A DNA stretch of 40,793 nt from a virus. Taxonomy: Duplodnaviria > Heunggongvirae > Uroviricota > Caudoviricetes. Location: the IMG/VR virus record IMGVR_UViG_3300048837_000378, positions 1 to 40,793 of that record; one strand, written 5' to 3'. Position numbers and translations under genes: made by a program. Of the stretch, positions 93-13,178 are shown in pieces; positions within the stretch are counted from its first letter, which is position 1; each line of letters opens with the position of its first letter. The notes under the pieces were generated by a model. The model worked only from the letters and a program-made list of their open reading frames with translations. It had not been told where the DNA came from and ran no database searches.

Positions 93-253
93 TACTCGTC
101 CTTTTTTAAGACTTTGTCTTTATATTCGTTTATACGTTTGATTTCTTCTTTAATTTCAGCCATATCACCTTTGTCGGCTAAAAACTCAATCCATTTTAAA
201 CTAGTTTCAGTGTAGCCGATAACTTCAAACGCTGCTACTGCTTTGTCGCTCAT
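92..253 (-). CDS. Hypothetical protein, 53 aa
   Basis: MSDKAVAAFEVIGY...KVLKKDE; GGAGG RBS upstream; translated manually. Confidence 0.65.
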   Translation of the reverse strand: MSDKAVAAFEVIGYTETSLKWIEFLADKGDMAEIKEEIKRINEYKDKVLKKDE

Positions 254-792: not shown

Positions 793-1176
793 CTATTCTC
801 CTTTTTCTTCGTTTTGAAATAAAACTTTGCCTTTATCACTATAAGGCATTACATCTTTATGTTGAAATTCAATCTTAGGCCAACCTAAACCTTGTGCTAC
901 AATTTTGTTCCAGAATGGTTTGCCTTTCTTATCAAAATCAAAAGTCATATATCTAACAATAAAAGCTTGGCATTTTTTGTCCATAATGGCGTCGCCTTTG
1001 TTGTGCGGCCTAGTTTTTGCAAACTCAAGGTAATCCTCTAGCAAAGGTTTTGCTTCGTTCATGTCCTCAAGAAACTCAGTCACGAGTTTTGTTAAAACTG
1101 TGCCAGCCTTATCTTGTAATTTGTACTTTTTTAATATTCTTTCAAATTTCTGGAAATTGTCTTTATTAAATTTCAT
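793..1176 (-). CDS. Hypothetical protein with terminal VLF-type motif
   Basis: Start moved to MKFNKD (GAGGT RBS); ends SDKGKVLFQNEEKGE. Confidence 0.75.
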   Translation of the reverse strand: MKFNKDNFQKFERILKKYKLQDKAGTVLTKLVTEFLEDMNEAKPLLEDYLEFAKTRPHNKGDAIMDKKCQAFIVRYMTFDFDKKGKPFWNKIVAQGLGWPKIEFQHKDVMPYSDKGKVLFQNEEKGE

Positions 1177-1205
1177 ATATACCTCTACTGCAAACGGCTT
1201 GCCAA

Positions 1206-1718
1206 CTAATCCATGTGCTGTATGCAACTAGGTTCGTTTTCAGCCGCAGTTTCTAACTTTGATGCGACAAACATTTGACTATTGTCTAACAGTTCGTCGT
1301 AATAATAATCTTTATTATTAGCGTAAAACAGAGAGCTACCGAAAGCATAAGGATACATGATGCTTTTAGGCTGCCCATTGTCCAAGCGTTCTGACCTATG
1401 CCCTAAATTTAGAGTGCAATGGCCTAGCTCGTGGAATATTGTTTGCTCCATAAAATTAGGAGTGTCAATATACTGTTCATAGTAGTCAATATTCACCACG
1501 ACCTCACGCTTACCGCTAGACCACATCTTACAAACTGCTACAGTGTTTGCGTCTAATTGTCCAAGCTGTACTGTATAATTAATAGACACGCCGTAAACAC
1601 GTTCAAACAAGCTTATATGCTCTGCTAATTCTGCTGCGCGAAAAGGTAGCTCTACAGTTTTGTAGCCGCTATCGGCACAACCTACGCAAAATAAGGCTAA
1701 AATTAATAGATACCTCAT
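1206..1718 (-). CDS. Lipoprotein zinc metallopeptidase (metzincin/matrixin-like)
   Basis: Signal/lipobox MRYLLILALFCVGC; HELGHCTLNLGH zinc motif; SIMYP Met-turn. Confidence 0.75.
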   Translation of the reverse strand: MRYLLILALFCVGCADSGYKTVELPFRAAELAEHISLFERVYGVSINYTVQLGQLDANTVAVCKMWSSGKREVVVNIDYYEQYIDTPNFMEQTIFHELGHCTLNLGHRSERLDNGQPKSIMYPYAFGSSLFYANNKDYYYDELLDNSQMFVASKLETAAENEPSCIQHMD

Positions 1719-1960
1719 TGTGCCCACTCCCAACCTTGGCATGGCGCTAATTCGTTTAAGTTTTTAGTTTTAGAAACAATATAAGGTTTAATTTCTGGCA
1801 TATATACGTCGCCAATTTCTGTCTCATAGCCCATTACAACGCATTGGATTGTGTCGTCGTCAAACTTTTCGTCAGTGACGTAGTATTCCCAACCATTTCT
1901 CAAAATGATATGCTCAACTACGTTGATTGTGCTGCCGTATTTATTTTTCATTTGTCTCAT
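1715..1960 (-). CDS. Hypothetical protein, possibly DUF2958-like
   Basis: YVTDE...CVVMGYETEIGDVYMPEI resembles the DUF2958 pattern by eye only; AAGGCGG RBS before MRQMK. Confidence 0.6.
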   Translation of the reverse strand: MRQMKNKYGSTINVVEHIILRNGWEYYVTDEKFDDDTIQCVVMGYETEIGDVYMPEIKPYIVSKTKNLNELAPCQGWEWAQ

Positions 1961-2213
1961 TTGATACCGCCTTGTTAATACTAGTACCATACAAAACCTG
2001 TGCCGCTGGGCAATTTTTTTCTAACTTAATGAAATTATAGTGTAAACTGGCGTGAGCTTTAATTTCAGGCCATTTAAAACTGTGTAAATTATTTACCTTT
2101 GCTATAGATACACAAAAAGTATCGTAATCAAATTCAATAATTTCATATACTTGCTTAGACTGTCTATCTATTACATAGTCGCCTAATTCATAAACACCCA
2201 TAGAATTACCCAT
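1941..2213 (-). CDS. KOW/SH3-like small protein with VLYG motif
   Basis: YELGDYVID; CPAAQVLYG; start embedded in the upstream gene's TAT-GGG codons. Confidence 0.75.
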   Translation of the reverse strand: MGNSMGVYELGDYVIDRQSKQVYEIIEFDYDTFCVSIAKVNNLHSFKWPEIKAHASLHYNFIKLEKNCPAAQVLYGTSINKAVSNETNEK

Positions 2214-2556
2214 AGAGTACCTCAAAAGCTTTTAAATCATCTGCAATTTTTGTCCATCTAATATTTGTTACGGTCCAAGGTGGCATATCTCTTGTAAACT
2301 TTTTAGCCAACATCCAATCTATTTTAAATAGACCTCTGTTTTCGTCCCATTGAAAAACTTGCATTGAATCGCATATCTTAGGACCTCCGCCTATAATTAA
2401 ATGCTCCAACACTTCACCCATTGATTGTGTCAATGTTTTATGATTGTGGTCTATATTCGCCTGCTTAAGTACTAAAGTCCAAGGCGAAGTGTTAACACAA
2501 CAAGCTAACACCGGATAATTTTTATTAGTATGAAACAACACGAAATCAATCGCCAT
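2206..2556 (-). CDS. Hypothetical protein ending in EVLYG
   Basis: Start MAIDF embedded in the upstream CAT-GGC; ends KAFEVLYG-stop. Confidence 0.75.
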   Translation of the reverse strand: MAIDFVLFHTNKNYPVLACCVNTSPWTLVLKQANIDHNHKTLTQSMGEVLEHLIIGGGPKICDSMQVFQWDENRGLFKIDWMLAKKFTRDMPPWTVTNIRWTKIADDLKAFEVLYG

Positions 2557-2809
2557 GCAATACTCGTGCCGTAGGCGATTCGTCAAGTATAAATGGGCAC
2601 TCTTCATCTGCGTGAGGTTGATGTCTATTTTCCCATTCTGAAATTAATTCTTTATTAAGTTCGTCGTCTGTCAATTTATAAAACGTGTTAACTAGCTGTT
2701 CTTCTATATACAAAACCATAGTTTCTGTATCCCAATCTGATACAGCAATATTTTCCATAATAATTTCAATAGCTTGTTCTCTATTTACTATTTGTTTTTT
2801 AGTTTTCAT
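2546..2809 (-). CDS. Hypothetical protein ending in VLHGD
   Basis: ORF track; AAAGGG RBS; ends ESPTARVLHGD. Confidence 0.75.
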   Translation of the reverse strand: MKTKKQIVNREQAIEIIMENIAVSDWDTETMVLYIEEQLVNTFYKLTDDELNKELISEWENRHQPHADEECPFILDESPTARVLHGD

Positions 2810-2810
2810 A

Positions 2811-3113
2811 TTACCCTTTCAAAACTTGAAAAGCTGGACTATTTTTAAGCATCTCAATCACTAGACTAAACTCTTCTGCAACTGCGATGCCAACAGTGTT
2901 ATCAGGTTGTACTTGAACATATTTATCTATTGAAGCAAATGCCAATTTTTTATACACATCATAAGACATAATTATAATAGTTTTAGGTTTTATTGTGTTG
3001 GTAGAGTAGTCTTGTTCTAAGATTTCAATAGGACCGATAATAGCCGAGCGCGGCACAACAAACCTATACTTATCTTTGTGAGTCAGAATGATACAATCAT
3101 TATAGTCCATCAT
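2811..3113 (-). CDS. Hypothetical protein ending in VLKG
   Basis: ORF track; ends NSPAFQVLKG. Confidence 0.75.
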   Translation of the reverse strand: MMDYNDCIILTHKDKYRFVVPRSAIIGPIEILEQDYSTNTIKPKTIIIMSYDVYKKLAFASIDKYVQVQPDNTVGIAVAEEFSLVIEMLKNSPAFQVLKG

Positions 3114-3342
3114 CCCCGACTCCCGTATTGTTTAAGTTTTCTACATTTGTCAATTTATCTAAATAAACCCGCATCATTAGAATTTCACTTTTTAAATTGA
3201 TAAAGTAGCCGAGGCCGTAAGAATCTAGCTCAGAATCAAAAGTTAACTCTTTTACCCAATTATCACAACTGTCTAATTGTTCTACGGATTTACAACTACG
3301 AATAACCTTCATGGCTGCTGTATATTTTGAATTATTGTCCAT
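3100..3342 (-). CDS. Hypothetical protein
   Basis: Start MDNNSK embedded in the upstream TAT-GGA; GGAG RBS. Confidence 0.7.
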   Translation of the reverse strand: MDNNSKYTAAMKVIRSCKSVEQLDSCDNWVKELTFDSELDSYGLGYFINLKSEILMMRVYLDKLTNVENLNNTGVGDDGL

Positions 3343-3595
3343 AAAGTAAATACTCCGTTCTATTACTAATATTGAAGTGTTTACATATATCATGCAGATT
3401 ATATGCCACAACCATATCAATTTGTTCTGGTAATCTTTTCAATAACTTAAGATGCAAGCCTGGGATTTTAAGATTACGTTTAGTGACTATAAAGAAGTCG
3501 CCTGTATATTTGTTAGACAGGTAATCCCCTTTTCTAAAATCGGTAATAAAAACGCCACCAGGCCACAAAGGATTATATTGTCTCTTTTTTGCCAT
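3332..3595 (-). CDS. KOW/SH3-like small protein ending in LLYGQ
   Basis: FRKGDYLSN; start MAKKRQ embedded in the upstream TAT-GGC. Confidence 0.75.
   Translation of the reverse strand: MAKKRQYNPLWPGGVFITDFRKGDYLSNKYTGDFFIVTKRNLKIPGLHLKLLKRLPEQIDMVVAYNLHDICKHFNISNRTEYLLYGQ
3393..3408 (-). promoter_or_regulatory. Possible internal sigma54 promoter
   Basis: TGGCATATAATCTGCA (GG-N10-GC), ~50 nt before the 3342 start; could be chance. Confidence 0.35.
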
Positions 3596-3998
3596 ATAAC
3601 ACCATAAGACTAGAAGGACCATTTTCTACTACAAAATCAATAAAAGGTTTACAACTGTTTAAAAACTTAGCAGCATTTGACGTGTTATTAGTTCTATAAA
3701 CTCTAGCATCGTGTATTGCTTTAGACTCTGCAAGACCTAGGCCAAAAGCTCGCCTAATCTCTTTAATCATAGGTATAGCTTGATTTTTATTGACCGTAAA
3801 TCTTATAACTATAGGCTGGTCAGTATCGTCGTCCGCAAACAGTAGCCTAAGTGTTTTGTATTCGTTTAATTTTGACTCAATTTGAATAACGTTTCTTCGT
3901 TCTTCTTTATTCTCGGGCCAGGCTGCGGCGTCTTGGATACTTTCGCCCATCTCCCATCGACCTGTAGTTCTCTTAACTAAGTATATGATTTTATTCAT
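3573..3998 (-). CDS. Protein with ribosomal L7/L12 C-terminal-like segment and VLYG motif
   Basis: AIPMIKEIRRAFGLGLAESKAIHD resembles the L12 CTD pattern (vIKavReitGLGLkEaK); GPSSLMVLYG near the end. Confidence 0.7.
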   Translation of the reverse strand: MNKIIYLVKRTTGRWEMGESIQDAAAWPENKEERRNVIQIESKLNEYKTLRLLFADDDTDQPIVIRFTVNKNQAIPMIKEIRRAFGLGLAESKAIHDARVYRTNNTSNAAKFLNSCKPFIDFVVENGPSSLMVLYGKKETI

Positions 3999-4044
3999 AA
4001 AAGCCTACCCTGCCTTTGTTTTAGGGGCTATCCAAAACAGCGCC

Positions 4045-4227
4045 CTATTGTTTACAGTCCTCGTATAAGTAAAATAATACAACCGGCCACCCTAATAAAC
4101 CCAGCAACCCCCTAATGATACTACCTATAGTAGCACTCCTGAAGCTCTTATGATTGATTATAGCCATAGTTAAGTAGACACCTAACCCGATACTAGCATA
4201 CATGATTAAAACTGTGTTGTGGTCCAT
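4045..4227 (-). CDS. Small membrane protein, two hydrophobic segments
   Basis: VLIMYASIGLGVYLTMAII and IIRGLLGLLGWPVVLFYL. Confidence 0.7.
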   Translation of the reverse strand: MDHNTVLIMYASIGLGVYLTMAIINHKSFRSATIGSIIRGLLGLLGWPVVLFYLYEDCKQ

Positions 4228-4437
4228 TTAGGAAGCTCTTTCTAGCCATAGGCTATTAATTAGGTGTCCTTCTTCTATCTCTTCAATAGTTACCATATAA
4301 TAGCCATTATTAAGGTTGTCTATACAGCAACTAGCAATAGTTAAGGTTTTACCCTTGTAGTTAGAAAAGTAACCATCGTAGTCAGGGTAGAACTTAACCT
4401 TAGAACCAATTTCCATAACTTGGCTTTTGCCTTTCAT
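4228..4437 (-). CDS. KOW/SH3-like small protein
   Basis: MEIGSKVKF; GGGGG RBS; first gene after the sigma54 site at 4503-4518. Confidence 0.7.
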   Translation of the reverse strand: MKGKSQVMEIGSKVKFYPDYDGYFSNYKGKTLTIASCCIDNLNNGYYMVTIEEIEEGHLINSLWLERAS

Positions 4438-4766
4438 AAAAGGGTACCCCCTATTGTTTTTGAGGTAGTTTCAAAAAGACTACCCCCTTTACTTTTTAGG
4501 TAAGCAGAATTTGTGCCATGTGTTATTTCAATAGGATAGCTGTATAATACCTGTGTAATAAGTGTACAAGTGTATGAGATATGGTGTACAATATACATAT
4601 AGGTCATATAGGTTATAATAGAGGTAATAAGTAGGGTAGTAGATATGGTAAGTAGTTGTAATTGTTTAGGAATAGTAAGTAATTGTAGTAGTAATATTAG
4701 TACAATCGGGGACCAGTTTTCATCTAACCTGCCGGTTTTACTGGTGAAAATAGCATTTTTCATCAT
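4434..4766 (-). CDS. Doubtful low-complexity L/T/I-rich ORF
   Basis: Has an AAGGGT RBS but spans a C-free tract and a sigma54 site. Confidence 0.3.
   Translation of the reverse strand: MMKNAIFTSKTGRLDENWSPIVLILLLQLLTIPKQLQLLTISTTLLITSIITYMTYMYIVHHISYTCTLITQVLYSYPIEITHGTNSAYLKSKGGSLFETTSKTIGGTLL
4503..4518 (-). promoter_or_regulatory. Sigma54 (RpoN) -24/-12 promoter for the leftward operon
   Basis: TGGCACAAATTCTGCT, GG-N10-GC; ~65 nt upstream of the 4437 start. Confidence 0.7.
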
Positions 4767-5017
4767 AAAATACCCTTAAATAGCATATAAAGCTCTATAA
4801 ACTGTAAAAATAGCCTTATTACTACAAACATTATATATAATTTAAGTACTACTAGAGCCTTTTTACCTATAGGTAGAGCTAAAAATTCTATATATAGGGC
4901 TTTCCCTTTCACACATAGCATATACTAGTCCTTTCTCAGTATGAGTCATCTCAAAATGAGACGTATCAGATTAAGACGTATCATTATGAGGCGTTCATTT
5001 TGGTACGAGTAGGCCGT

Positions 5018-5054
5018 TGGCACGGAAATTGCATATATAGCAAATAGCGTACCA
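5018..5054. promoter_or_regulatory. Face-to-face pair of sigma54 promoters
   Basis: + TGGCACGGAAATTGCA (5018-5033); - TGGTACGCTATTTGCT (5054-5039). Confidence 0.8.
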
Positions 5055-5249
5055 GTCCCAAATAGAGACGTATCAGATTGAAAATACCGCATTGAGACGT
5101 AGCTGCAAATACCGTGCTTGTATTGGAATGATACGTAATTCGAATTGTAAGTCTATAAGTATATGAAACTACTAGTGATTCTCAATTTGATATGTGAATA
5201 TTGAGTGGTGTCTAACTGACGTATATTGACTATAAGTTATACAAGCTTG

Positions 5250-5262
5250 TAACCTATTGATT
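5250..5262 (-). promoter_or_regulatory. Possible IHF site
   Basis: AATCAATAGGTTA matches WATCAANNNNTTR; lies between palindromic boxes and the 5365 sigma54 site. Confidence 0.35.
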
Positions 5263-5364
5263 CTATTAAGTAATATGTAATTGTTCTATATATGAGACTC
5301 CCCTTGTATATAAGTTCAACGTACCATCATAAGATTGACAGTCTAAGTACTTGAATTTACGTTG

Positions 5365-5380
5365 TGGCACCTAAACTGCA
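5365..5380 (+). promoter_or_regulatory. Sigma54 promoter for the 5410-6593 operon
   Basis: TGGCACCTAAACTGCA, GG-N10-GC; 30 nt before the ATG at 5410. Confidence 0.75.
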
Positions 5381-5409
5381 TTAGTTACTTGTATGAAAGC
5401 GAGGCATAT

Positions 5410-5640
5410 ATGAATCAGATACCTAGAGGCATATATAAGCACTACAAGAATACAGATACTCATACTATAACGTTTTATACTGAGACTAAGACCTATAGCT
5501 TATCTTGTGATTCACTCTTAGGTTTATTAAGTTTAGTTGATTCGTTCTTTAGCCCTAGACCTGATATGAGTCTAAGTGAATACACTTTAGCTCTAGAGTC
5601 AAGTTTAGACAACACTGTAAAACTTAATAAGGTGGCTTAA
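5410..5640 (+). CDS. Hypothetical protein
   Basis: Start moved to MNQIPRG (GAGG RBS). Confidence 0.7.
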   Translation: MNQIPRGIYKHYKNTDTHTITFYTETKTYSLSCDSLLGLLSLVDSFFSPRPDMSLSEYTLALESSLDNTVKLNKVA

Positions 5641-5641
5641 T

Positions 5642-5824
5642 ATGGTACAGATTAAAGAGTCTCAAGTTGAGGCGGTTATTACAGTGTGCCCGTATTGCAT
5701 GGACGAAGTGTCTCATAACAAGACAGGCTGTTGTGGGGAGAGTTCGTGTCACTTTGAGACGGCTGTGGTATATGATGGCATGGCATACCTTGAAAATGAG
5801 ATTGATATAATTGAAGGACAATAA
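5642..5824 (+). CDS. Small Cys-rich, probably Zn-binding protein
   Basis: CPYC...CCGESSCH; AAGGTGG RBS. Confidence 0.7.
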   Translation: MVQIKESQVEAVITVCPYCMDEVSHNKTGCCGESSCHFETAVVYDGMAYLENEIDIIEGQ

Positions 5825-5864
5825 ACTGTCTCATAACGAGACAATACACTATAACGGGGGTTAT

Positions 5865-6593
5865 ATGTTTAGGAACTACGCTAAAGATGAAATAGAGGCG
5901 CTTCAAATTGAGACAGGCGTCAAGTCTGTACTCACTCAGAATGCTAAAATGAAGCGTTCGTCTCAAAATGGGATTCACTTGTATAACTTCGGTATTCCAG
6001 CCTTTAGGTCTCAAACTGGTCTTGCCACTTGTCCCAATGCGAAACACTGCGTTAAAGGCTGTTATGCTAAAAGCGGCTCTTATCTGTACTCGGGCACCGT
6101 AGCAGCCTATGAGAATCGTCTCAGTTTGACACGAACCAAAGGTTTTGAACAAGTAATAACGTACCATATTGATAAACTCCTCAAAAAACACCCCACTGGT
6201 CTCATATTGATACGGGTGCATGATAGTGGGGACTTTTACAGTGAAACATATCATAGAGCATGGTATTTAATAGCGTCTCAGTATGAGACTAATCCTAGAG
6301 TCAAGTTTTATGCTTATACCAAAATGGTACAGCAGTCTTTAGGCTTATCGGCTTTAGCGCCTAAAAACTTTAGGTTAATTTTTAGTTATGGCGGAAGTGA
6401 AGATTCTCATATTGATACAGAGAAGCATTACCATAGCCGAGTGTTTGAAAGTCTAGAGGCATTGAGTCAAGCCGGATATATAGATGGTACTCACGACGAT
6501 ACTTGCGCTGCCATTGGTCCAGACGTGAAAATAGGTCTAGTATATCATGGTATGCGAAGCTTTAAAAACACAACATGGGATAAGGTCTCATAA
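5865..6593 (+). CDS. Gene product 88-like protein (Cys cluster, radical-SAM-like fold)
   Basis: TCPNAKHCVKGCYA and RVHDSGDFY, FYAYTK motifs typical of the phage gp88 family; start MFRNY with GGGGG RBS. Confidence 0.8.
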   Translation: MFRNYAKDEIEALQIETGVKSVLTQNAKMKRSSQNGIHLYNFGIPAFRSQTGLATCPNAKHCVKGCYAKSGSYLYSGTVAAYENRLSLTRTKGFEQVITYHIDKLLKKHPTGLILIRVHDSGDFYSETYHRAWYLIASQYETNPRVKFYAYTKMVQQSLGLSALAPKNFRLIFSYGGSEDSHIDTEKHYHSRVFESLEALSQAGYIDGTHDDTCAAIGPDVKIGLVYHGMRSFKNTTWDKVS

Positions 6594-6610
6594 TGATATA
6601 ACCCCCAAGC

Positions 6611-6644
6611 TGGCACGGTAGTTGCTTATGCAATTGCTGTGCCA
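6611..6644. promoter_or_regulatory. Second face-to-face pair of sigma54 promoters
   Basis: + TGGCACGGTAGTTGCT (6611-6626); - TGGCACAGCAATTGCA (6644-6629). Confidence 0.85.
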
Positions 6645-6839
6645 GTCTCTTTATTATACATAATTCGAAATATGGCTTATATTGAGACATTCGAGGACTG
6701 TCTAAGGTATGACTCTCGTATATAAGTTCGCCACCTGCTAAGTACTTATAACTATTAAGCTTATTAGAACTAAGGCTATATTGACTATAAGTTGTACGTC
6801 TTCTCTATTCGAGACTTGAGTAATTACAACTACTTAGGT

Positions 6840-6855
6840 TGGCACGAGGACTGCA
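6840..6855 (+). promoter_or_regulatory. Sigma54 promoter
   Basis: TGGCACGAGGACTGCA, GG-N10-GC. Confidence 0.75.
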
Positions 6856-6867
6856 ATACTAGTATAT

Positions 6868-6963
6868 ATGAAGACGTTAACTGTTACAACTAAGAAGATA
6901 AGTGATAAGCAAATAAAACAACTAGAGTGTTTAGGCTTTAAAGTTAAAGTGATTTTAAAATAA
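6868..6963 (+). CDS. Putative 31-aa basic peptide, near-leaderless
   Basis: MKTLTVTTKKISDKQIKQLECLGFKVKVILK; the ATG is ~2 nt after the predicted sigma54 start site. Confidence 0.45.
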   Translation: MKTLTVTTKKISDKQIKQLECLGFKVKVILK

Positions 6964-7004
6964 ACCGTCTCTATATGAGACATAACTATACCTAGGGGGT
7001 ATAT

Positions 7005-7256
7005 ATGAAGCATTCAGTAAAACAAACAGTATTCAACGCATTGAATACAGAACTAGAATCTGGTCGCATGACCTTGACTCAGTTACTCAATCCCAATTGG
7101 GGACAGTGTCAAGACTTTGGTCTATTCATTACTGGACTAGTGTCTTATATTGGCACTAATTATGGTACTGTCAGACCTGAAACTGTAAACGTATATATTA
7201 GAAGCTTTAAAGCTAAGGAACGACGCAAGTTGTCTCAAGCTAAAACAACTATCTAA
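7005..7256 (+). CDS. Hypothetical protein
   Basis: ORF track; AGGGGG RBS. Confidence 0.75.
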   Translation: MKHSVKQTVFNALNTELESGRMTLTQLLNPNWGQCQDFGLFITGLVSYIGTNYGTVRPETVNVYIRSFKAKERRKLSQAKTTI

Positions 7257-7281
7257 AAGTTAGACATTGTATCATACTGAG

Positions 7282-7304
7282 CCGTACCTCTAAGGGGGGT
7301 ACGG
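7282..7304 (+). terminator. Hairpin, probable terminator of the + operon
   Basis: CCGTACCTC-TAAGG-GGGGTACGG; U-tail is weak. Confidence 0.5.
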
Positions 7305-7537
7305 TAATCAGTTTACCTCCCCTAACCCCTCCAGTTACCAAAAGAGTATCGGTTTGGAATTTTAAAAAAAATTAAAAATCAAACTTACGTATTATAATAT
7401 TATACTCTTAAAGGTATATTTTAACAGTTTAAAGCTCTAACTAGTTAATAAGACTGGCTTATGTATTTACGTATATTAACTAATATAAGGGGTACTACCA
7501 TTAAAACGGACTCTACAACAAAGTGACATTCTAAATT

Positions 7538-7777
7538 TTAAAAAATTCTTAAAAAGGAACTAGTGGTGATTACATCAGGTATAGGGTCTGGACTGGGCCA
7601 ATATAACGTAATTTCAGCCTTAGTAGCCAATCTACAAGTAAACATACCATCTTCTAAATACCAACGGTTATAATTACCATTATCCCATAAAACTTCAAAC
7701 CACCTGTTAGTAACTCGGGATATCTTACCCATACTAACGTCAGTGACTATAATGTCGCCTTTATTAAAAGGGACCAT
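7538..7777 (-). CDS. KOW/SH3-like small protein
   Basis: FNKGDIIV; start embedded in the upstream TAT-GGT. Confidence 0.7.
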   Translation of the reverse strand: MVPFNKGDIIVTDVSMGKISRVTNRWFEVLWDNGNYNRWYLEDGMFTCRLATKAEITLYWPSPDPIPDVITTSSFLRIF

Positions 7778-8015
7778 ATAAAGTCTCTATAACTTTGATT
7801 CTAGTGTCTGAGTCGTCTACAACTTCAAATAGCCGCTGTAAATCGTACCTAGTAAAGTGAAGTTCATTTCCAGTATTAAAGGAATAGAATAGAAGCTCAT
7901 AAGGCTTATTTCTTACGTAGTTATTAACTTTAATAAACTTATATAGCCTAGTGTGGTCTAGGGATACCCAGTCGCCAGGTTGCAATAAATTGATTTCTCT
8001 AAACGTCATTGCCAT
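7764..8015 (-). CDS. KOW/SH3-like small protein with TLYG motif
   Basis: LQPGDWVSL; ends KVIETLYGPF; start MAMTF embedded in the upstream TAT-GGC. Confidence 0.75.
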   Translation of the reverse strand: MAMTFREINLLQPGDWVSLDHTRLYKFIKVNNYVRNKPYELLFYSFNTGNELHFTRYDLQRLFEVVDDSDTRIKVIETLYGPF

Positions 8016-8304
8016 ATAACAGCTCGCCAGCAGGAGTATGTGGCACAAAAGTAACGTAGTCCATATTAACCCAACACCGCGTATTATACAGTTCAATAAG
8101 TAAAGTATTATCTTCTATTTTAAATTCTGTCAATTCTTCTTGTATCAAAGCCCAAGGTCCGTTGTCAATTTGACGGTAATATTCTAATTTGACTGGAATA
8201 GCAAGTTTAACGTAAGTATCAGTCTTTTCTAAATAAAATAGAGGACTATCTGACATATAAGCGTGTAACAGCTTGACTTGTTGGGCAGGAACTTTAGCTT
8301 CCAT
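7999..8304 (-). CDS. Hypothetical protein with LLYG motif
   Basis: Start MEAKVP (AGGA RBS); ends TPAGELLYGNDV. Confidence 0.75.
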   Translation of the reverse strand: MEAKVPAQQVKLLHAYMSDSPLFYLEKTDTYVKLAIPVKLEYYRQIDNGPWALIQEELTEFKIEDNTLLIELYNTRCWVNMDYVTFVPHTPAGELLYGNDV

Positions 8305-8641
8305 CTGAAGGTCCTGTAAGTACTTGTAAAGCTGGAGTTTCTTCAAATACGCTAAAATGGTGTACGTTATTAGCGTCAATCTCTAACCTAGCAGTACCAG
8401 CAGCTAGAGTCCAATTAACTACTGATAAGCTAATAGAGTCTTTTGTAAAAGAATAGGCTCTAACTTCAAATATATGAAATTTACCGTTATTATCTAGATA
8501 TTCAGGGTTTGTATAGACTAAGTGACATATAGTAGTCCTACCTATGTCGTAGGGCCTCTCAGCTTCTTTTTGAGCTTTAGTCAACTTGTATCTTTTTAAT
8601 TGTTTCTTTAAGACGTTCAAGGGTAGAGCTTTTCTAGGCAT
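8294..8641 (-). CDS. Hypothetical protein with VLTG motif
   Basis: AGGAG RBS; ends TPALQVLTGPSDGS. Confidence 0.75.
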   Translation of the reverse strand: MPRKALPLNVLKKQLKRYKLTKAQKEAERPYDIGRTTICHLVYTNPEYLDNNGKFHIFEVRAYSFTKDSISLSVVNWTLAAGTARLEIDANNVHHFSVFEETPALQVLTGPSDGS

Positions 8642-8772
8642 TATAAGCTCCTAATAGCCCGTTTAAGGCGTCTCATCTCATCAAGGCTGATACTGGGGTA
8701 CATCCAGTAATCTAAAGGAATCTGAGGCGTTATAGAGGCCGACGCTTGCAAGGGCTTAGGTGGCATGCTCAT
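8641..8772 (-). CDS. Putative 43-aa protein
   Basis: MSMPPKPLQAS...RRLKRAIRSL; its TAA overlaps the next ATG. Confidence 0.4.
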   Translation of the reverse strand: MSMPPKPLQASASITPQIPLDYWMYPSISLDEMRRLKRAIRSL

Positions 8773-8804
8773 ATATTGACTCTACTGTAACCTAGGTAGA
8801 ACAT

Positions 8805-9398
8805 TTATAGCATACCTTGTTGTTTAGCCTTATTACGTAAGTACGTCATAAAGTTATCTTGAGTGTAAGTAACAGCTTCAGTAGCTCCTATCACAGTTTT
8901 AGAAGGCTTAGACAAAGTTATAAATATTTCGTTATGATGATTTTTAAAAGTTTTAAGGTTAACCCAACCGTCTTGTTTGACAATTTCAGAAGCTATTGCT
9001 AAATAAGGATTAGGGGTCGAGGATGCGATTGTGCCAGAGCTTGAAGAGTCAGACCGAGTAGTACTTCTTTTATCGTAGTTTAGAAGGTCTGACCCAGGCT
9101 TAGGGGTTCCTAGGTTGCCTGTCCCTATTACCTTAGTTCTTTTTTCTAGTTCGTTTTTTAGGTTTTGTAAGGTCGTAGAAGAACGTGACGTCGTCTTCTG
9201 GGCTAGAGGGTACGACGTGAACTTTTGGTTTACGTTTGTTTGTCGATTTTCGGGGGCGGCCTTCGGCCTTGACAGGGCTAGGGAGGCTCGGAGGGTATAT
9301 ACTTTTTTTTTAAGCTGAAGTACTAACTGGTACAATTTAGTACCAAGGTTTATGACAGCTTCGCCTAACAAAGTTAGGAAATCTTTATTTTGTTCCAT
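8805..9398 (-). CDS. Hypothetical protein with S/T/K-rich disordered middle
   Basis: ORF track; directly follows a sigma70 promoter. Confidence 0.7.
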   Translation of the reverse strand: MEQNKDFLTLLGEAVINLGTKLYQLVLQLKKKVYTLRASLALSRPKAAPENRQTNVNQKFTSYPLAQKTTSRSSTTLQNLKNELEKRTKVIGTGNLGTPKPGSDLLNYDKRSTTRSDSSSSGTIASSTPNPYLAIASEIVKQDGWVNLKTFKNHHNEIFITLSKPSKTVIGATEAVTYTQDNFMTYLRNKAKQQGML

Positions 9399-9404
9399 AC
9401 TTAA

Positions 9405-9433
9405 GCTATATCAAACTTGTTAGTTTGAGTCAA
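9405..9433 (-). promoter_or_regulatory. Sigma70 promoter with a palindrome in the spacer
   Basis: TTGACT-N17-TATAGC; spacer holds TCAAACT-N4-AGTTTGA (9411-9428); predicted +1 is at or near the ATG at 9398. Confidence 0.65.
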
Positions 9434-9441
9434 GCAATATA

Positions 9442-9639
9442 TTACTTTGACTTGATTTCTTCTCCAAATAAGACTTCTCTGTTATCAACTATCTTGGCGT
9501 CTACCCATTCCCCATACTCAAGTATCTTTTCTCCGAAACTTTGACGAAGAAAAGTCTCTGCGTTATCTAATTTCTCTTCGTAGTCCTTACCTTTGATTTT
9601 TACGCCCATAGCGTCAAACAAGCCATTATCCAACATCAT
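9442..9639 (-). CDS. Hypothetical protein with EVLFG motif
   Basis: Start moved to MMLDNG (AGGGG RBS), which removes a 170-nt overlap; ends NREVLFGEEIKSK. Confidence 0.65.
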   Translation of the reverse strand: MMLDNGLFDAMGVKIKGKDYEEKLDNAETFLRQSFGEKILEYGEWVDAKIVDNREVLFGEEIKSK

Positions 9640-9688
9640 CTGAGCGTTGCCCCTAAATCCTAACACTCCATTGTGTATTTTAGTTGCG

Positions 9689-10066
9689 TCATTTACTGCC
9701 GCCAGAAATTCCTTTTCCTGGCCCACTTTGGCTACCAAATATTTTTGGGTCAAGGAGGCTTCGTTTGATGAAGTTGAGGGCTTCTTGGATTTTGGCTTTG
9801 CGGTCGTCCTTGGCTTTTTCTTCATCTTCAGTGTCTCCATGTAAAAGTCTGTAATTTCCAATATTTATAAGTTTTAAGAAACTCATTTTTTCAATTTTAA
9901 AACGATGTCTAATTAGAGTTTGTTTTGTATCGTAGTCTAGAATCTCATAAGCATGACCATCATATTCACATTTAAAAACATCCAATACTAGGTAATGGTT
10001 ACGTTCATCTATTAACTCCGAGCCTGGAGCGTATTTGGCTAATCTTTTATAACCGTTATTGCCCAT
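9689..10066 (-). CDS. Hypothetical protein with internal RLLHG motif and charged tail
   Basis: Start MGNNGY embedded in the upstream GAT-GGG. Confidence 0.7.
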   Translation of the reverse strand: MGNNGYKRLAKYAPGSELIDERNHYLVLDVFKCEYDGHAYEILDYDTKQTLIRHRFKIEKMSFLKLINIGNYRLLHGDTEDEEKAKDDRKAKIQEALNFIKRSLLDPKIFGSQSGPGKGISGGSK

Positions 10067-10493
10067 CAAATAACACCTTAGTTGTTTCTGAATATGGGGC
10101 CAATTCATCTTGAGGAATGAATCTACTAGAAGGTGTAATTCTTCCGTCTTTTCCAACAGTTACAAAATGTACCACATATCCAGGCGGCGACTCTTTAGTC
10201 CAACCTTCAGGAGCATTTGGAGGAGAAGAACCCCAATCCGTATAAAGTTTAAAAATTGAGTCCACAAAAGGAGCGACAACAATTCCGTTACCAAACTCCT
10301 TATTGAATACGACTTCTCCTCGTTTATACGTTAAAGAGGAAACTTCAGCTATAGCTTGAACTATACCGGCTCTACGAGCCTCTAGCCTTTTTAGGTCAGC
10401 GTTTAATACTTCTAGAGTATCTCTATAAGGTATTTGTGCAAAAGTAGCAGCTTTAAAAGTTTCTAAAATTTTACTAATATCATCATTTTCCAT
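10056..10493 (-). CDS. Coiled-coil plus KOW/SH3-like protein with VLF motif
   Basis: YKRGEVVFNKEFGNGIVV; ends ETTKVLFDGQ; GAGGT RBS. Confidence 0.75.
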   Translation of the reverse strand: MENDDISKILETFKAATFAQIPYRDTLEVLNADLKRLEARRAGIVQAIAEVSSLTYKRGEVVFNKEFGNGIVVAPFVDSIFKLYTDWGSSPPNAPEGWTKESPPGYVVHFVTVGKDGRITPSSRFIPQDELAPYSETTKVLFDGQ

Positions 10494-10526
10494 TATACCT
10501 CTTTAAATACTATATACTATAATCTA

Positions 10527-10549
10527 GTAACTTTCTACAAGAAAGTTAC
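10527..10549. promoter_or_regulatory. Perfect inverted repeat, operator-like
   Basis: GTAACTTTCT-ACA-AGAAAGTTAC upstream of 10493. Confidence 0.5.
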
Positions 10550-10694
10550 GTACTAGTATGTTCTATATAAATTACATAGTTTTATTTAATATCACACTTT
10601 TTATATAAAGTAAATAGGGAATTAAAAATAAATTCATTTTATATTGAATCCTCCTTAAACCCCCGTTCCGCAGCCCCCCTTTATGGTTCCTTTT

Positions 10695-10710
10695 TGCAAA
10701 ATACATGCCA
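10695..10710 (-). promoter_or_regulatory. Sigma54 promoter (leftward)
   Basis: TGGCATGTATTTTGCA, GG-N10-GC. Confidence 0.7.
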
Positions 10711-10716
10711 AACTTC

Positions 10717-10744
10717 TTGACATACCTATATTTTATGTTATAAC
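10717..10744 (+). promoter_or_regulatory. Sigma70 promoter (rightward)
   Basis: TTGACA-N16-TATAAC with TG extended -10; AGGAG RBS follows. Confidence 0.65.
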
Positions 10745-10759
10745 CAATATAGGAGTACT

Positions 10760-11266
10760 ATGGCTAAAAATCAAAAAACTATAGATATAACAACTATTAC
10801 GTCAGGTACACAAGTAAACTGGCCAACTTTCGTTTATGACAGTTTTCATAAGGCTCGGTCCTTTAATATGAACAGATTCATAAATTACTGTCACCCTGGT
10901 ACAGTATTAGTACACGGCACCAGTAAGGTTAAGTGGACGGTTAAAGAACTTGTAAAAGTAAAAGAAGGTTATGACGAATGGCCCTATACCGAATCTACTA
11001 CTGATAAGATTTTTGTTTCTATAGAATCTGAAAAAGGTTATAAAAAACAAGTAGATACAGAACAATTTTATATGTACGACATTGTTCATATTCCTAAAGC
11101 TGTAGAAGTTCTTTGGGGCAGTTTGGCGGACAATCCTACAAAAAAACCAGAAGACTTTATTGCCGAACAAGCAGGTATATTTTTTATGGAGTTGCAGGTA
11201 CGTAAACCGGCTTCTATGACCTATATTCCGATTACTCTGCATTTGCCGGTTATAAAAAATGAGTAG
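10760..11266 (+). CDS. Hypothetical protein, KOW/SH3-like, with internal EVLWG motif
   Basis: CHPGTVLVH; PKAVEVLWG. Confidence 0.75.
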   Translation: MAKNQKTIDITTITSGTQVNWPTFVYDSFHKARSFNMNRFINYCHPGTVLVHGTSKVKWTVKELVKVKEGYDEWPYTESTTDKIFVSIESEKGYKKQVDTEQFYMYDIVHIPKAVEVLWGSLADNPTKKPEDFIAEQAGIFFMELQVRKPASMTYIPITLHLPVIKNE

Positions 11267-11591
11267 ATTTCCCCGAGTCGGAGACTATATTAAATTTGAA
11301 CAACTGTTCACTGTAAATTTAGGAGACTTAGGGTCAGGTCCTTTGTATATAGATATACCTAAAAATACAATATGTGAAGTACTTGATACTCATATAACTA
11401 AAGACGATAAACGTTCTTCAATGATAGACTACGCTCCATTTCAAATATATTTGGGTATAACAGATAAAAATATATCTCCTCATAAATTTATCATAAGATT
11501 CAACTACTTACAACATCAAGAGATTGTATCTATAATTCCAGGAGGGAACCCAAAAACGGTGGAAACACTGTTCGGTCAAAATGAAAGTTAA
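11259..11591 (+). CDS. KOW/SH3-like protein with TLFG motif
   Basis: PRVGDYIKF; ends NPKTVETLFGQNES. Confidence 0.75.
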   Translation: MSRFPRVGDYIKFEQLFTVNLGDLGSGPLYIDIPKNTICEVLDTHITKDDKRSSMIDYAPFQIYLGITDKNISPHKFIIRFNYLQHQEIVSIIPGGNPKTVETLFGQNES

Positions 11592-11823
11592 CGAATACCA
11601 AAATTTCAAAAAAGGCGACTTCGCATTAGTAGCGAATAAATTAGTTAAGATAGTTCATTTTAAAGTGTATTATACGGGATTAGGTTTGGAGTATGGAGAA
11701 GTGTTTTTCAAATACGTTAAAGACGATAACAGCTTCACTTTTAATGCCTCAATAACTCTTCTTAAAAAATTAGAACAAGGCCCAGCTAAGGTGTTGTATG
11801 GTTCCAGTAAAAGCCAATTCTAA
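11581..11823 (+). CDS. KOW/SH3-like protein with VLYG motif
   Basis: FKKGDFALV; GPAKVLYG. Confidence 0.75.
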   Translation: MKVNEYQNFKKGDFALVANKLVKIVHFKVYYTGLGLEYGEVFFKYVKDDNSFTFNASITLLKKLEQGPAKVLYGSSKSQF

Positions 11824-12085
11824 ACAATTTAGGGGTTTTTTGCAAGACGGCTTCGTAACTGACGCATTATTACGTCCGTATTTTACACCTGGAAATCTCT
11901 ATCTAGTTAAAATTACTACATATTTTGATGAATATGGTAACGAGACCTCCATAGAAATGATAATAGTTGACGAATTGACCGGATTCTCTAAACTAATAGA
12001 ATTGCCTCCGTATTACATAAATGACCTGTTTATCGAGGCTAAATCTCCAGCAGCCTCCGTCTTATTTGCAAAACCGTCAAAATAA
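11798..12085 (+). CDS. KOW/SH3-like protein with VLFA motif
   Basis: FTPGNLYLV; ends SPAASVLFAKPSK. Confidence 0.75.
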   Translation: MVPVKANSKQFRGFLQDGFVTDALLRPYFTPGNLYLVKITTYFDEYGNETSIEMIIVDELTGFSKLIELPPYYINDLFIEAKSPAASVLFAKPSK

Positions 12086-12098
12086 TTGACACTACACG

Positions 12099-12122
12099 TT
12101 GACTTAGCATACACATTATAAT
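12099..12122 (+). promoter_or_regulatory. Promoter-like motif with short spacer, copy 1
   Basis: TTGACTTAGCATACACATTATAAT (TTGACT-N12-TATAAT). Confidence 0.45.
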
Positions 12123-12141
12123 AGGGCATGAGGAGTCACCT

Positions 12142-12369
12142 ATGGACCTACGTTTTATAGAATGGCAACAGTCCATTTACATTGTGATAGGTATAGGTCA
12201 AGATACTAAATTTGACCCGCCAGACGTGTATTATTGCATCCTGCTAGAAAATTCTCTCATAGCTGACGTCTTAAGGGCTATAGACACTGTTATTATACCT
12301 TTTTCAGAAGCTATTGAAATTACTGATAAAAATAGAGTAAAGGCTATAAATATTTTATTTGGCAGGTAA
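12142..12369 (+). CDS. Small beta-rich protein ending in ILFGR
   Basis: GAGGAG RBS; ends KAINILFGR. Confidence 0.75.
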   Translation: MDLRFIEWQQSIYIVIGIGQDTKFDPPDVYYCILLENSLIADVLRAIDTVIIPFSEAIEITDKNRVKAINILFGR

Positions 12370-12370
12370 T

Positions 12371-12610
12371 ATGCAATGGTCTAAGTTTAATATTGGAGAT
12401 TCTGTTATATATCAAGGACTGGTGTATAAAGTAAGAAGTGTTCACGCTTTAAACTGGAGCATGAATAATCCCTTTGTTTACGGGTTGATTTTGGCTCACA
12501 AATCTTCAGACGGCTGCGTATCTAGACAAGTTTACGTATGCGAACAACAAATAGCCGAAGCAACCACTCAACAAATACAAGTGTGGGAGTTACTATATGG
12601 CAACAGATAA
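12371..12610 (+). CDS. KOW/SH3-like protein ending in LLYGNR
   Basis: FNIGDSVIY; ends QVWELLYGNR. Confidence 0.75.
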   Translation: MQWSKFNIGDSVIYQGLVYKVRSVHALNWSMNNPFVYGLILAHKSSDGCVSRQVYVCEQQIAEATTQQIQVWELLYGNR

Positions 12611-12875
12611 GAGTAGAATTTTTACCGAATTAATTGAAGTTCATCTAAAAGAGATGAATATTGTAGAAATCTACCACAACAAAAGTATTGATTTTAAAGC
12701 TAAAGATGTGGTACAGTGTAGCTATATGAAGGGTCTTTACGAAGTAAAACTCATCACGCCCACGTACTTAGAGGTGGCTCCAATCGAAAATAACAGCCTA
12801 CGCCATTTTATAGGACCTAATTTTCTAAAAAAAGTCTCTATAAACCAGAATATAAGGAAAATATTATATGATTAA
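12597..12875 (+). CDS. KOW/SH3-like protein ending in ILYD
   Basis: FKAKDVVQC; ends NIRKILYD. Confidence 0.75.
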   Translation: MATDKSRIFTELIEVHLKEMNIVEIYHNKSIDFKAKDVVQCSYMKGLYEVKLITPTYLEVAPIENNSLRHFIGPNFLKKVSINQNIRKILYD

Positions 12876-13149
12876 TATAAATACTGGAGATTATATTTTA
12901 GGTAAAGACGAAATCTGGGAAATAACAAATATATACCAATCTGGACAAGATACTCTTTTTAATTTGAGATTACTCTCAGAGCCTGGCGACTTTTTAGAAG
13001 TATACGACCATGAGTTAGCAGAATACAAAGGCGCGGAACCAGTAGATAGGTTAGTTGGAGTATCCTTCAGTTATATCAAACACTTAGGTCAAATCGTCCC
13101 CAAAGATTCTCAAAAGGCAGTAGAAATTCTATTCAAAGATAACAAATAA
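12868..13149 (+). CDS. KOW/SH3-like protein with ILF motif
   Basis: INTGDYILG; ends QKAVEILFKDNK. Confidence 0.75.
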   Translation: MININTGDYILGKDEIWEITNIYQSGQDTLFNLRLLSEPGDFLEVYDHELAEYKGAEPVDRLVGVSFSYIKHLGQIVPKDSQKAVEILFKDNK

Positions 13150-13155
13150 AAACCA

Positions 13156-13178
13156 TTGACTTAGTATACACATATAAT
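13156..13178 (+). promoter_or_regulatory. Promoter-like motif with short spacer, copy 2
   Basis: TTGACTTAGTATACACATATAAT (TTGACT-N11-TATAAT). Confidence 0.45.

Follow-up and report, generated by a model that had tools for sequence, protein, structure and literature searches.

In phage T4, the C-terminal tails of gp43, gp55 and gp33 can stand in for one another as ligands of the gp45 clamp (PMC2988020). In the T4 genome (NC_000866), gp43 ends in ASLDFLFG and gp55 in SPSLDFLYEAND, each running directly into its stop codon. MinD carries a C-terminal membrane tail, KGFLKRLFGG (PMC5471200), and the XB peptide of SspB, RGGRPALRVVK, binds the N-domain of ClpX (PMC3983244, PMC12373786). The PeSL cassettes of T4-type phages, which combine a promoter with a stem-loop, are mobile and occupy intergenic DNA (PMC2839356). 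We analysed a window comprising the first 40,793 nucleotides (nt) of a 104,793-nt IMG/VR virus record (IMGVR_UViG_3300048837_000378, here G000; estimated to be 91% complete), in which many small early proteins end in the same short peptide. Genome-wide, at least 43 of the 173 genes carry this tail, with further arrays at 63-66, 81 and 95-103 kilobases (kb). The tail is a non-random, lineage-wide feature that is absent from the structural genes. A first, sequence-only reading had called it undescribed, and our literature searches likewise found no account of a "VLYG" tail in phages or of small paralogous proteins whose genes overlap at a start codon.

The carriers in the left 13 kb lie in three small-gene arrays on both strands, as had been described: from 4.9 to 0.09 kb and from 10.5 to 7.5 kb on the minus strand, and from 10.76 to 13.15 kb on the plus strand. 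Each of the 21 peptides quoted in the sequence-only reading was found in its open reading frame (ORF), the positions given there being the low ends of ORFs rather than of motifs, and we added a 22nd, weak carrier (KVLKK, gene 92-253). Between 1.9 and 12.6 kb, 14 long ORFs have the strict motif [VLIT]L[YFHW]G close to their ends; in the other 27 kb of the window it appears in short non-coding frames only. The looser pattern [VILTM]L[FYHW] falls within the last 22 residues of 18 of 38 predicted early genes, a count based on a crude gene model. When the same 22 residues were shuffled 2000 times, the pattern fell there in 3.6 early genes on average and never in more than 11, so the tails exceed what composition-matched terminal segments would give. 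The looser pattern also ends 2 of the 51 genes of the structural block (13.6-62 kb) and 23 of the 83 of the right arm (62-105 kb); the earlier statement that no structural gene ends this way is upheld. Each of 79 phage loci without relation to G000 but of comparable G+C (about 1.2 Mb in all) had 0-2 matches, and the relative L001 had nine in 15 kb. The conserved unit is larger than the motif first noticed: a hydrophobic strand and a [ST]-P or D-x turn precede a helix of two to three turns, which follows the last beta strand and has the core consensus A-x-x-[VI]-L-[FY](-G). Lys or Arg commonly follows the Gly.

The tail module is under selection at the amino-acid level. Within the motif, the nucleotides that vary coincide exactly with the third positions of upstream-frame codons. 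Within the window the tail Leu uses all six codons, as originally reported, and does so in genome-like proportions, with YTN never encoding Phe. Across 26 junctions of G000, mean pairwise DNA identity is 14.92 of 33 nt against 14.94 expected, and identical stretches of 12 nt or more occur in two pairs, with 1.2 expected, under a null in which synonymous codons are re-drawn from the same amino acids by genome codon usage. Tails lacking a nearby start also keep V/I-L-Phe, as in genes 9442 (VLFG), 11798 (VLFA), 12868 (ILFK) and 793. Because the tripeptide is kept without a start, because its Leu codons are genome-like and because junction identity equals the null, V/I-L-aromatic is selected as protein; selection on the protein, as first argued from the Leu codons, is thereby supported on all three counts. 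A profile of the gene 12868 family, searched against 1.84 billion representatives, recovered about 40 homolog clusters of 76-103 residues, all of which keep A-I-E-[IV]-L-[FY]; Gly comes next in only about one third.

A second layer of information occupies the same codons. In nearly all Tyr and His tails the codons read TAT GGN or CAT GGN, and the ATG contained there opens a downstream ORF of 73-132 residues. The Glu-Val, Lys-Val or Gln-Val codons before it read GAGGT, AAGGT or CAGGT, 5-6 nt 5' of the embedded ATG, resembling a Shine-Dalgarno (SD) site. This ATG lies within the Tyr/His-Gly or Tyr-Asp codons at 11 junctions of the window and one to three codons later elsewhere, and genes at tail junctions typically overlap by 8-26 nt. 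In orthologs, the embedded ATG is the sole start between the in-frame stop and the conserved N-terminus. Tail Tyr is encoded by TAT and TAC at 22:3, compared with 61:39 genome-wide, and ordinary G000 genes have AAGGAG with an A-rich spacer, without T at -3 and -1. From these sequence features, neighboring genes at tail junctions are very probably translationally coupled. The tails of the window are as follows, each with its coordinates, strand and gene.

101-124, minus strand: YKDKVLKK, a weak tail, gene 92-253, the last of the leftward operon.
814-837, minus strand: DKGKVLFQ, gene 793-1176; the next start is a GTG at 790, past the stop, with the SD AAAGGAG in the extension.
1986-2009, minus strand: PAAQVLYG plus 14 residues, gene 1941-2213; TATGG holds the ATG of 1715-1990.
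2209-2232, minus strand: KAFEVLYG at the stop, gene 2206-2556; GAGGT and TATGG are the SD and start of 1941-2213, and the L001 ortholog keeps both the tail and the embedded SD and start.
2552-2575, minus strand: PTARVLHG, gene 2546-2809; the start of 2206-2556 is in CATGG.
2814-2837, minus strand: PAFQVLKG at the stop, gene 2811-3113; the Lys-Gly codons AAAGGG are the SD for an ATG at 2809, just past the stop.
3338-3361, minus strand: RTEYLLYG, gene 3332-3595; the start of 3100-3342 is in TATGG.
3591-3614, minus strand: SSLMVLYG, gene 3573-3998; the start of 3332-3595 is in TATGG.
7773-7796, minus strand: KVIETLYG, gene 7764-8015; the start of 7538-7777 is in TATGG.
8011-8034, minus strand: PAGELLYG, gene 7999-8304; the start of 7764-8015 is in TATGG.
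8312-8335, minus strand: PALQVLTG, gene 8294-8641; the next start is three codons on, in GATGG, with the SD CAGGA in Thr-Gly.
9463-9486, minus strand: DNREVLFG, gene 9442-9840; no usable start is near, and a 43-nt gap precedes 8805-9398.
9836-9859, minus strand: GNYRLLHG plus a 48-residue extension, gene 9689-10066; the start of 9442-9840 is in CATGG.
10065-10088, minus strand: ETTKVLFD(G), gene 10056-10493; the SD AAGGTG is followed by an ATG one codon on, in Asp-Gly.
11096-11119, plus strand: KAVEVLWG plus a 48-residue extension, gene 10760-11266.
11553-11576, plus strand: KTVETLFG, gene 11259-11591; the Phe codon is TTC, and two codons on, in Asn-Glu, lies the next ATG.
11779-11802, plus strand: GPAKVLYG, gene 11581-11823; AAGGTG and TATGG are the SD and start of 11798-12085.
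12047-12070, plus strand: PAASVLFA, gene 11798-12085, operon-terminal, with no Gly and no start; a 56-nt gap with TTGACTTAGCATACACA follows.
12340-12363, plus strand: KAINILFG, gene 12142-12369; predicted helix 63-73 after the last strand of an SH3-like barrel.
12578-12601, plus strand: QVWELLYG, gene 12371-12610; GGGAG and TATGG are the SD and start of 12597-12875.
12849-12872, plus strand: NIRKILYD at the stop, gene 12597-12875; TATGAT holds the ATG of 12868-13149.
13114-13137, plus strand: KAVEILFK, gene 12868-13149, the last of its array, with no start near; predicted helix 82-90.

The copies in genes 9689 and 10760, once set apart as internal, are ordinary tails followed by extensions of 48-49 residues, and the L086 ortholog of 10760-11266 stops 14 residues past the tail. 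The extension of 9689-10066 overlaps the Lys-rich N-terminus of 9442-9840 by 152 nt (9689-9840, minus strand); it could be accounted for by a long stretch of dual coding or by the loss of a stop codon.

Since the start of the next gene occupies these codons, Tyr is preferred over Phe, TAT over TAC, and Gly is favored. The start layer thus largely accounts for the Tyr and the Gly, and not for V/I-L-aromatic. The Gly proposed as a helix cap is indeed present, but it is largely due to the ATG-G of the following gene, which had been overlooked. A selected peptide that also encodes the ribosome site and start of the next gene is a clear case of tightly overlaid signals. For annotation, true starts in tail arrays sit inside the preceding gene, and longest-ORF calls there are wrong; for example, 2206-2607 is called in place of the true 2206-2556. 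We also considered a prfB-like +1 frameshift and rejected it: the downstream frame always begins with ATG, the Tyr codon TAT is not rare, and the Leu codons are mostly TTA and not slippery. An effect of the nascent peptide on termination was rejected as well, since the stop lies anywhere between 0 and 49 codons past the tail.

As sequence comparison shows, the module is portable: it has been joined to an enzyme whose fold is known and is another one. G000 encodes a DenV-like pyrimidine-dimer glycosylase (genome 101227-101868, minus strand; L085, 7227-7868) with 363 homologs, most of which have 150-180 residues and end in RKPTW at about residue 155. A hairpin followed by the tail is present only in the nearest relatives of this gene, in the forms NYEVLFGG, SPTWQVLYG at the stop and HTVAAKVLFEEV at the stop, and some homologs have the hairpin without the tail. 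The homologs with a tail lie on related, syntenic contigs that are rich in tails. Here, too, the codons of F-G-G-x-N-E contain a GGAGG SD and the ATG (in Asn-Glu) of the following SLT-domain gene.

The tail also differs in flavor between clades. Relatives with at least 70% TerL identity have the A/T-x-x-V/I/T-L-Y-G flavor, and in G005, L097 and L089 position -4 is bulky and position -1 is Leu. In the sister clade (G004 and L091; TerL 68% identical), about 30 carriers end in P-hydrophobic-[GS]-E-L-x-x-A-[IL]-Y-[EG], and an ATG is likewise embedded at the junctions, in TATGAG or TATGGA. Three cross-clade pairs have homologous bodies, and each member bears the flavor of its own clade:

G000-clade PATEAAIVLFGG and sister HCTELASAIYT, E 1e-6 in a full-length alignment.
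G000-clade PIGPTTKILYGK and sister ERTEMTKAIYE.
G000-clade KVNAAMNVLYGN and sister VQQELPKVIYD.

All three pairs show the same exchange, in which -4 changes from small (Ala) to Leu or Met, -1 from branched (Val) to Ala, and position 0 from Leu to Ile. Judged from these alignments, a three-position exchange in independent families is concerted evolution, which would be expected from one common partner or from recombination homogenizing the junctions. Within G004 (loci L109-L111, e.g. at 8-9.5, 15-23 and 29-31 kb), tail codons are nearly uniform, reading GCT ATT TAT GAG TAA; this points to a younger or homogenized version of the same system. The TerS-like ending YREINxILH(G) was considered as a tag and rejected as coincidence, being identical in clades of differing tail flavor.

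The explanation toward which we lean, tentatively, is that one shared partner recognizes the tail helix as a structured handle. The exposed invariant Leu, the aromatic and the residue before the Leu would be the positions recognized, and the role of partner might fall to a hub protein, of phage or host, or to the carriers themselves. Such recognition would bring many different early proteins, along with at least one DNA-repair enzyme, to the same place, much as the tails of T4 gp43, gp55 and gp33 do. The idea is strengthened because the DenV-like enzyme bears the tail and because flavors shift in concert between clades. New carriers would arise by tandem duplication and by insertions in which the tail already present stays in place along with the next gene's start region. 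We are less confident of the fuller version, in which a quarter of G000 proteins, chiefly tiny early ones along with a DNA-repair glycosylase, would be clients of one hub reading a structured C-terminal helix, with the ligand co-evolving clade by clade and a start welded into its codons. If true, a viral "tool-belt" of this size would have no known counterpart in phages. No pool of proteins of unknown function is larger than that encoded by small early phage genes, and if dozens share one handle, a single helix pull-down could reveal where host-takeover proteins act. The clade-specific flavors would provide a built-in specificity control for such binding studies.

Several points weigh against a common partner. 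No partner for the tail was found, and the 91%-complete genome has no detectable gp45-like or beta clamp and no detectable ClpX zinc domain. The clamp profiles PF02916 and PF00712 gave no match, and Pfam and PHROGs scans of the replication block returned no clamp or clamp loader, although the clamp may be very divergent or that of the host. In the AlphaFold2 (AF2) models described below, the helix directly follows the last strand and lacks the flexible linker of T4 gp55 or SspB, a placement that fits an intramolecular capping helix. Some carrier bodies show remote homology (hhalign probability 45-84%, hmmsearch E 5e-4 to 6e-3) and two share one fold, and common descent accounts for part of the tail sharing. 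In the sister genome G004, identical stretches of 12 nt or more occur in 53 junction pairs, with 6 expected, and recombination or recent duplication there could produce a concerted flavor without any hub. Finally, likenesses between short hydrophobic peptides, those to MinD and SspB XB included, hold little information and are leads.

The main rival, which we consider unlikely though well short of negligible, is purely structural. The carriers would be an old, fast-diverging family of SH3/Tudor-like barrels, duplicated in tandem, and the tail their own capping helix with no common partner. It would remain recognizable through a double constraint, core packing and the overlapping start region. 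AF2 models were made for two carriers only (12868-13149 and 12142-12369), from shallow ortholog alignments, and reached a mean predicted local distance difference test (pLDDT) of 81 and 85, respectively. In both, a helix (residues 82-90 and 63-73, pLDDT 74-88) forms the tail and begins 2-4 residues past the last beta strand. Both bodies are predicted as a five-stranded small barrel with a C-terminal helix, and the structural matches were nearly all SH3, KOW, Tudor, CAP-Gly, PWWP or chromo-barrel domains (Foldseek E 0.2-1; VIA Z 4.3-6.9), some chromo-barrel matches extending over the tail helix. Foldseek against the PDB returned none at E <= 0.001. On these models, both carriers belong to the SH3/Tudor-like fold class, and the Leu and the aromatic may be buried on the protein's own barrel. 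The amphipathic docking tag first proposed therefore stands as a helix, but not as a free tag on a linker; its place right after the last strand in the two models touches on the outcome, packing into each protein's own fold, that the sequence-only reading had itself set against a tag.

The two modelled bodies have no detectable sequence similarity, and in both the helix is predicted with confidence and runs on from the last strand, as a capping helix would. About half of the carriers begin with x-G-D-x-[VI]. A profile built from the body of the 12868 family alone reaches gene 1941 and the 7764 ortholog (E 5e-4 to 2e-3). By hhalign, 12868 pairs with 12371 at 45% probability, and its last 29 residues with 11259 at 84%. 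In G004 of the sister clade, bodies fall into groups of 5, 5 and 2 paralogs, and the tail is kept across the 12868 family. Duplication is thus one source of carriers, as the remote body homology and the paralog groups imply.

Against a shared ancestry for all carriers, tail-trimmed bodies of 54 small G000 proteins compared all against all with phmmer gave no match below E 0.01. An iterated body profile halted at 6 matches, and a word-based homolog search found just 1-2 relatives for genes 12868 and 95810. Bodies initially described as unrelated are accordingly without phmmer matches at that level, but some share a fold or are remote homologs. Pfam at E <= 0.01 recognized, among 20 window proteins (18 of them carriers), only GP88 in 5811-6593 and a weak PF00542. 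The KOW/SH3-like barrels named from sequence agree with the SH3-like class of the two models, but no KOW (PF00467) match was found, and the proposed L7/L12-like protein (3573-3998) fails, as PF00542 scored 18.5 bits against a cut-off of 25.9 (E 0.0026, over 26 residues). The tail is also carried by the mostly helical body of gene 2546 and by larger proteins. It is carried as well by the DenV-like enzyme, whose other homologs lack it, so duplication is not the sole source of carriers. Leu and the aromatic are invariant despite saturated synonymous sites, though the sister clade tolerates Ile at the Leu position. One three-position swap in three independent pairs would be unexpected if each helix packed solely against the diverged body of its own protein.

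It is improbable that the tail is instead a junction cassette, in which the tail and the next start region serve as a recombination joint for gene swapping and the peptide is a tolerated passenger. Sister-clade junction DNA is alike far beyond what the amino acids need, the DenV-like gene took on a resident tail, homogenization would yield a clade-wide flavor, and PeSL cassettes provide a precedent (PMC2839356). In G000, however, junction identity equals the amino-acid null, and shared runs of about 5 nt are too short for homologous recombination. Drift would be expected of a passenger, but the Leu and the aromatic do not vary while third codon positions are free, and operon-terminal tails with no downstream start are kept. 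Such a mechanism probably contributes to the spread of the tail, at least in the sister clade, but it cannot explain its maintenance in G000.

A membrane address is less probable again. A short amphipathic, MinD-like helix would place early proteins at the inner membrane, and KAVEILF, EVLFGG and AGKVLFGR share the MinD spacing (i, i+1, i+4, i+5) and the L-F-G(-G) end, with the Gly often trailed by Lys or Arg. However, the tail is only about 8 residues long with a net charge near zero, and AF2 predicts a structured helix beside the fold rather than a free tail. Very unlikely, too, is a turnover tag that would tether early proteins to a protease through ClpX or a phage ClpP, either for timed removal or as a decoy. 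TPALQVLTG and SPAFQVLKG resemble the XB peptide RGGRPALRVVK (PMC3983244), and a cytoplasmic ClpP is encoded in G000 and a ClpP in its relative G005. Half of the tails, however, lack Pro-Ala, no ClpX-like gene was found in the 91%-complete genome, and the tail is predicted to be structured rather than extended. Leu161, reported to be the key residue of SspB, aligns to a variable position of the tail. That the motif is only the upstream-frame translation of a conserved initiation or operator sequence is scarcely credible and largely refuted: an SD-like GAGGT or AAGGT with ATGG does lie inside it at most junctions, but variation falls exactly on upstream third codon positions, YTN never encodes Phe, ordinary spacers are A-rich and not T-rich, and start-less tails are conserved.

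The surroundings of the arrays are those of a tailed phage for which sequence searches identify no close isolate. The window has a G+C content of 36-37%, megablast of 20 kb of it against isolated phages gave no match, and the relatives found with the capsid protein were only about 30% identical. A tail-less GP88-family gene (5811-6593) lies between the small-gene arrays, and beyond these arrays come a TerS-like gene and then TerL, portal and capsid genes. The replication and repair set includes PolA, a primase-helicase, a ligase, ERF, endonuclease VII, a UvsX-like recombinase and a class II ribonucleotide reductase. The cytoplasmic ClpP (genome 85179-85781, minus strand; Pfam E 3e-29) sits beside the DNA polymerase, and G000 also encodes a second ClpP-like protein (76193-77155, minus strand) and a peptide deformylase (68418-68873, minus strand) (loci L083 and L084), which together form an unusual protein-maturation and turnover set. 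Amid the early small genes, 1206-1742 (minus strand) encodes a protein of 170-178 residues with a lipoprotein-like signal (LFCVGC) and a HELGH zinc-protease motif, for which Pfam gave no match.

A palindrome with a 17-bp stem (6609-6646, plus strand), flagged in the terminator scan, lies directly 3' of the GP88-family gene and consists of TGGCAC-N5-TTGC (sigma54-like) elements, two of them face to face. Scanning 1-14 kb for sigma70 promoters and terminators gave no better result than shuffled sequence. An exact 17-nt element, TTGACTTAGYATACACA followed by TATAAT-like bases, occurs twice on the plus strand (12099-12115 and 13156-13172), each copy just 3' of an operon-terminal carrier gene (11798 and 12868) and 5' of the next gene. 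Its layout resembles that of a phage promoter whose spacer, at 11-12 nt, is unusually short. In relatives (L121, 5585-8214; L122, 6046-8560), a MoxR-type AAA_5 ATPase and a DUF2201 (VWA/metallopeptidase) protein adjoin tail-rich arrays as a pair, and an SPFH/Band_7 protein is likewise conserved there; the region concerned in G000 is 103134-104594, and its AAA_5 gene would fall past the contig end.

Compared with known systems, the tail arrays share one property or another with each. SH3-like barrels with a C-terminal helix (Tudor, the chromo-barrels of MRG15 and Tip60, PWWP, KOW) match the fold class of both AF2 models, with middling Z scores, no sequence or Pfam membership, and no function that could be transferred to the carriers. 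Coupled overlapping genes (ATGA, TAATG and longer overlaps) similarly place the downstream SD and start within the upstream ORF on the same strand in operon arrays; here, by contrast, one peptide recurs at dozens of junctions and is kept also where no start is embedded. PeSL cassettes are likewise a conserved element bordering small variable genes and tied to gene shuffling, but they are conserved as nucleotides, whereas the G000 junctions are conserved only at the amino-acid level.

The SspB XB peptide offers P-A-x-x-V-[VL] as a C-terminal tether, and G000 also encodes ClpP; however, Pro-Ala occurs in only a subset of tails, the conserved positions differ, and no ClpX gene was found. The MinD tail is also a portable C-terminal amphipathic helix with the same hydrophobic spacing and an L-F-G(-G) end, but it is basic and unstructured until binding, while the G000 tails have a net charge of about zero and are predicted to be structured. 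The closest match is the T4 clamp-tail pattern, [ST]-x-hydrophobic-[DE]-hydrophobic-L-[FY]-[GE] with 0-4 trailing residues on otherwise unrelated phage proteins. Its part hydrophobic-[DE]-hydrophobic-L-[FY]-[GE] is fitted by KAFEVLYG (at the stop), KTVETLFG and KAVEILFK. T4 has the clamp gp45, and in G000 no clamp gene was found. T4 has three to four carriers with tails on flexible linkers, whereas G000 has more than 40, with the tail set directly after the last strand.

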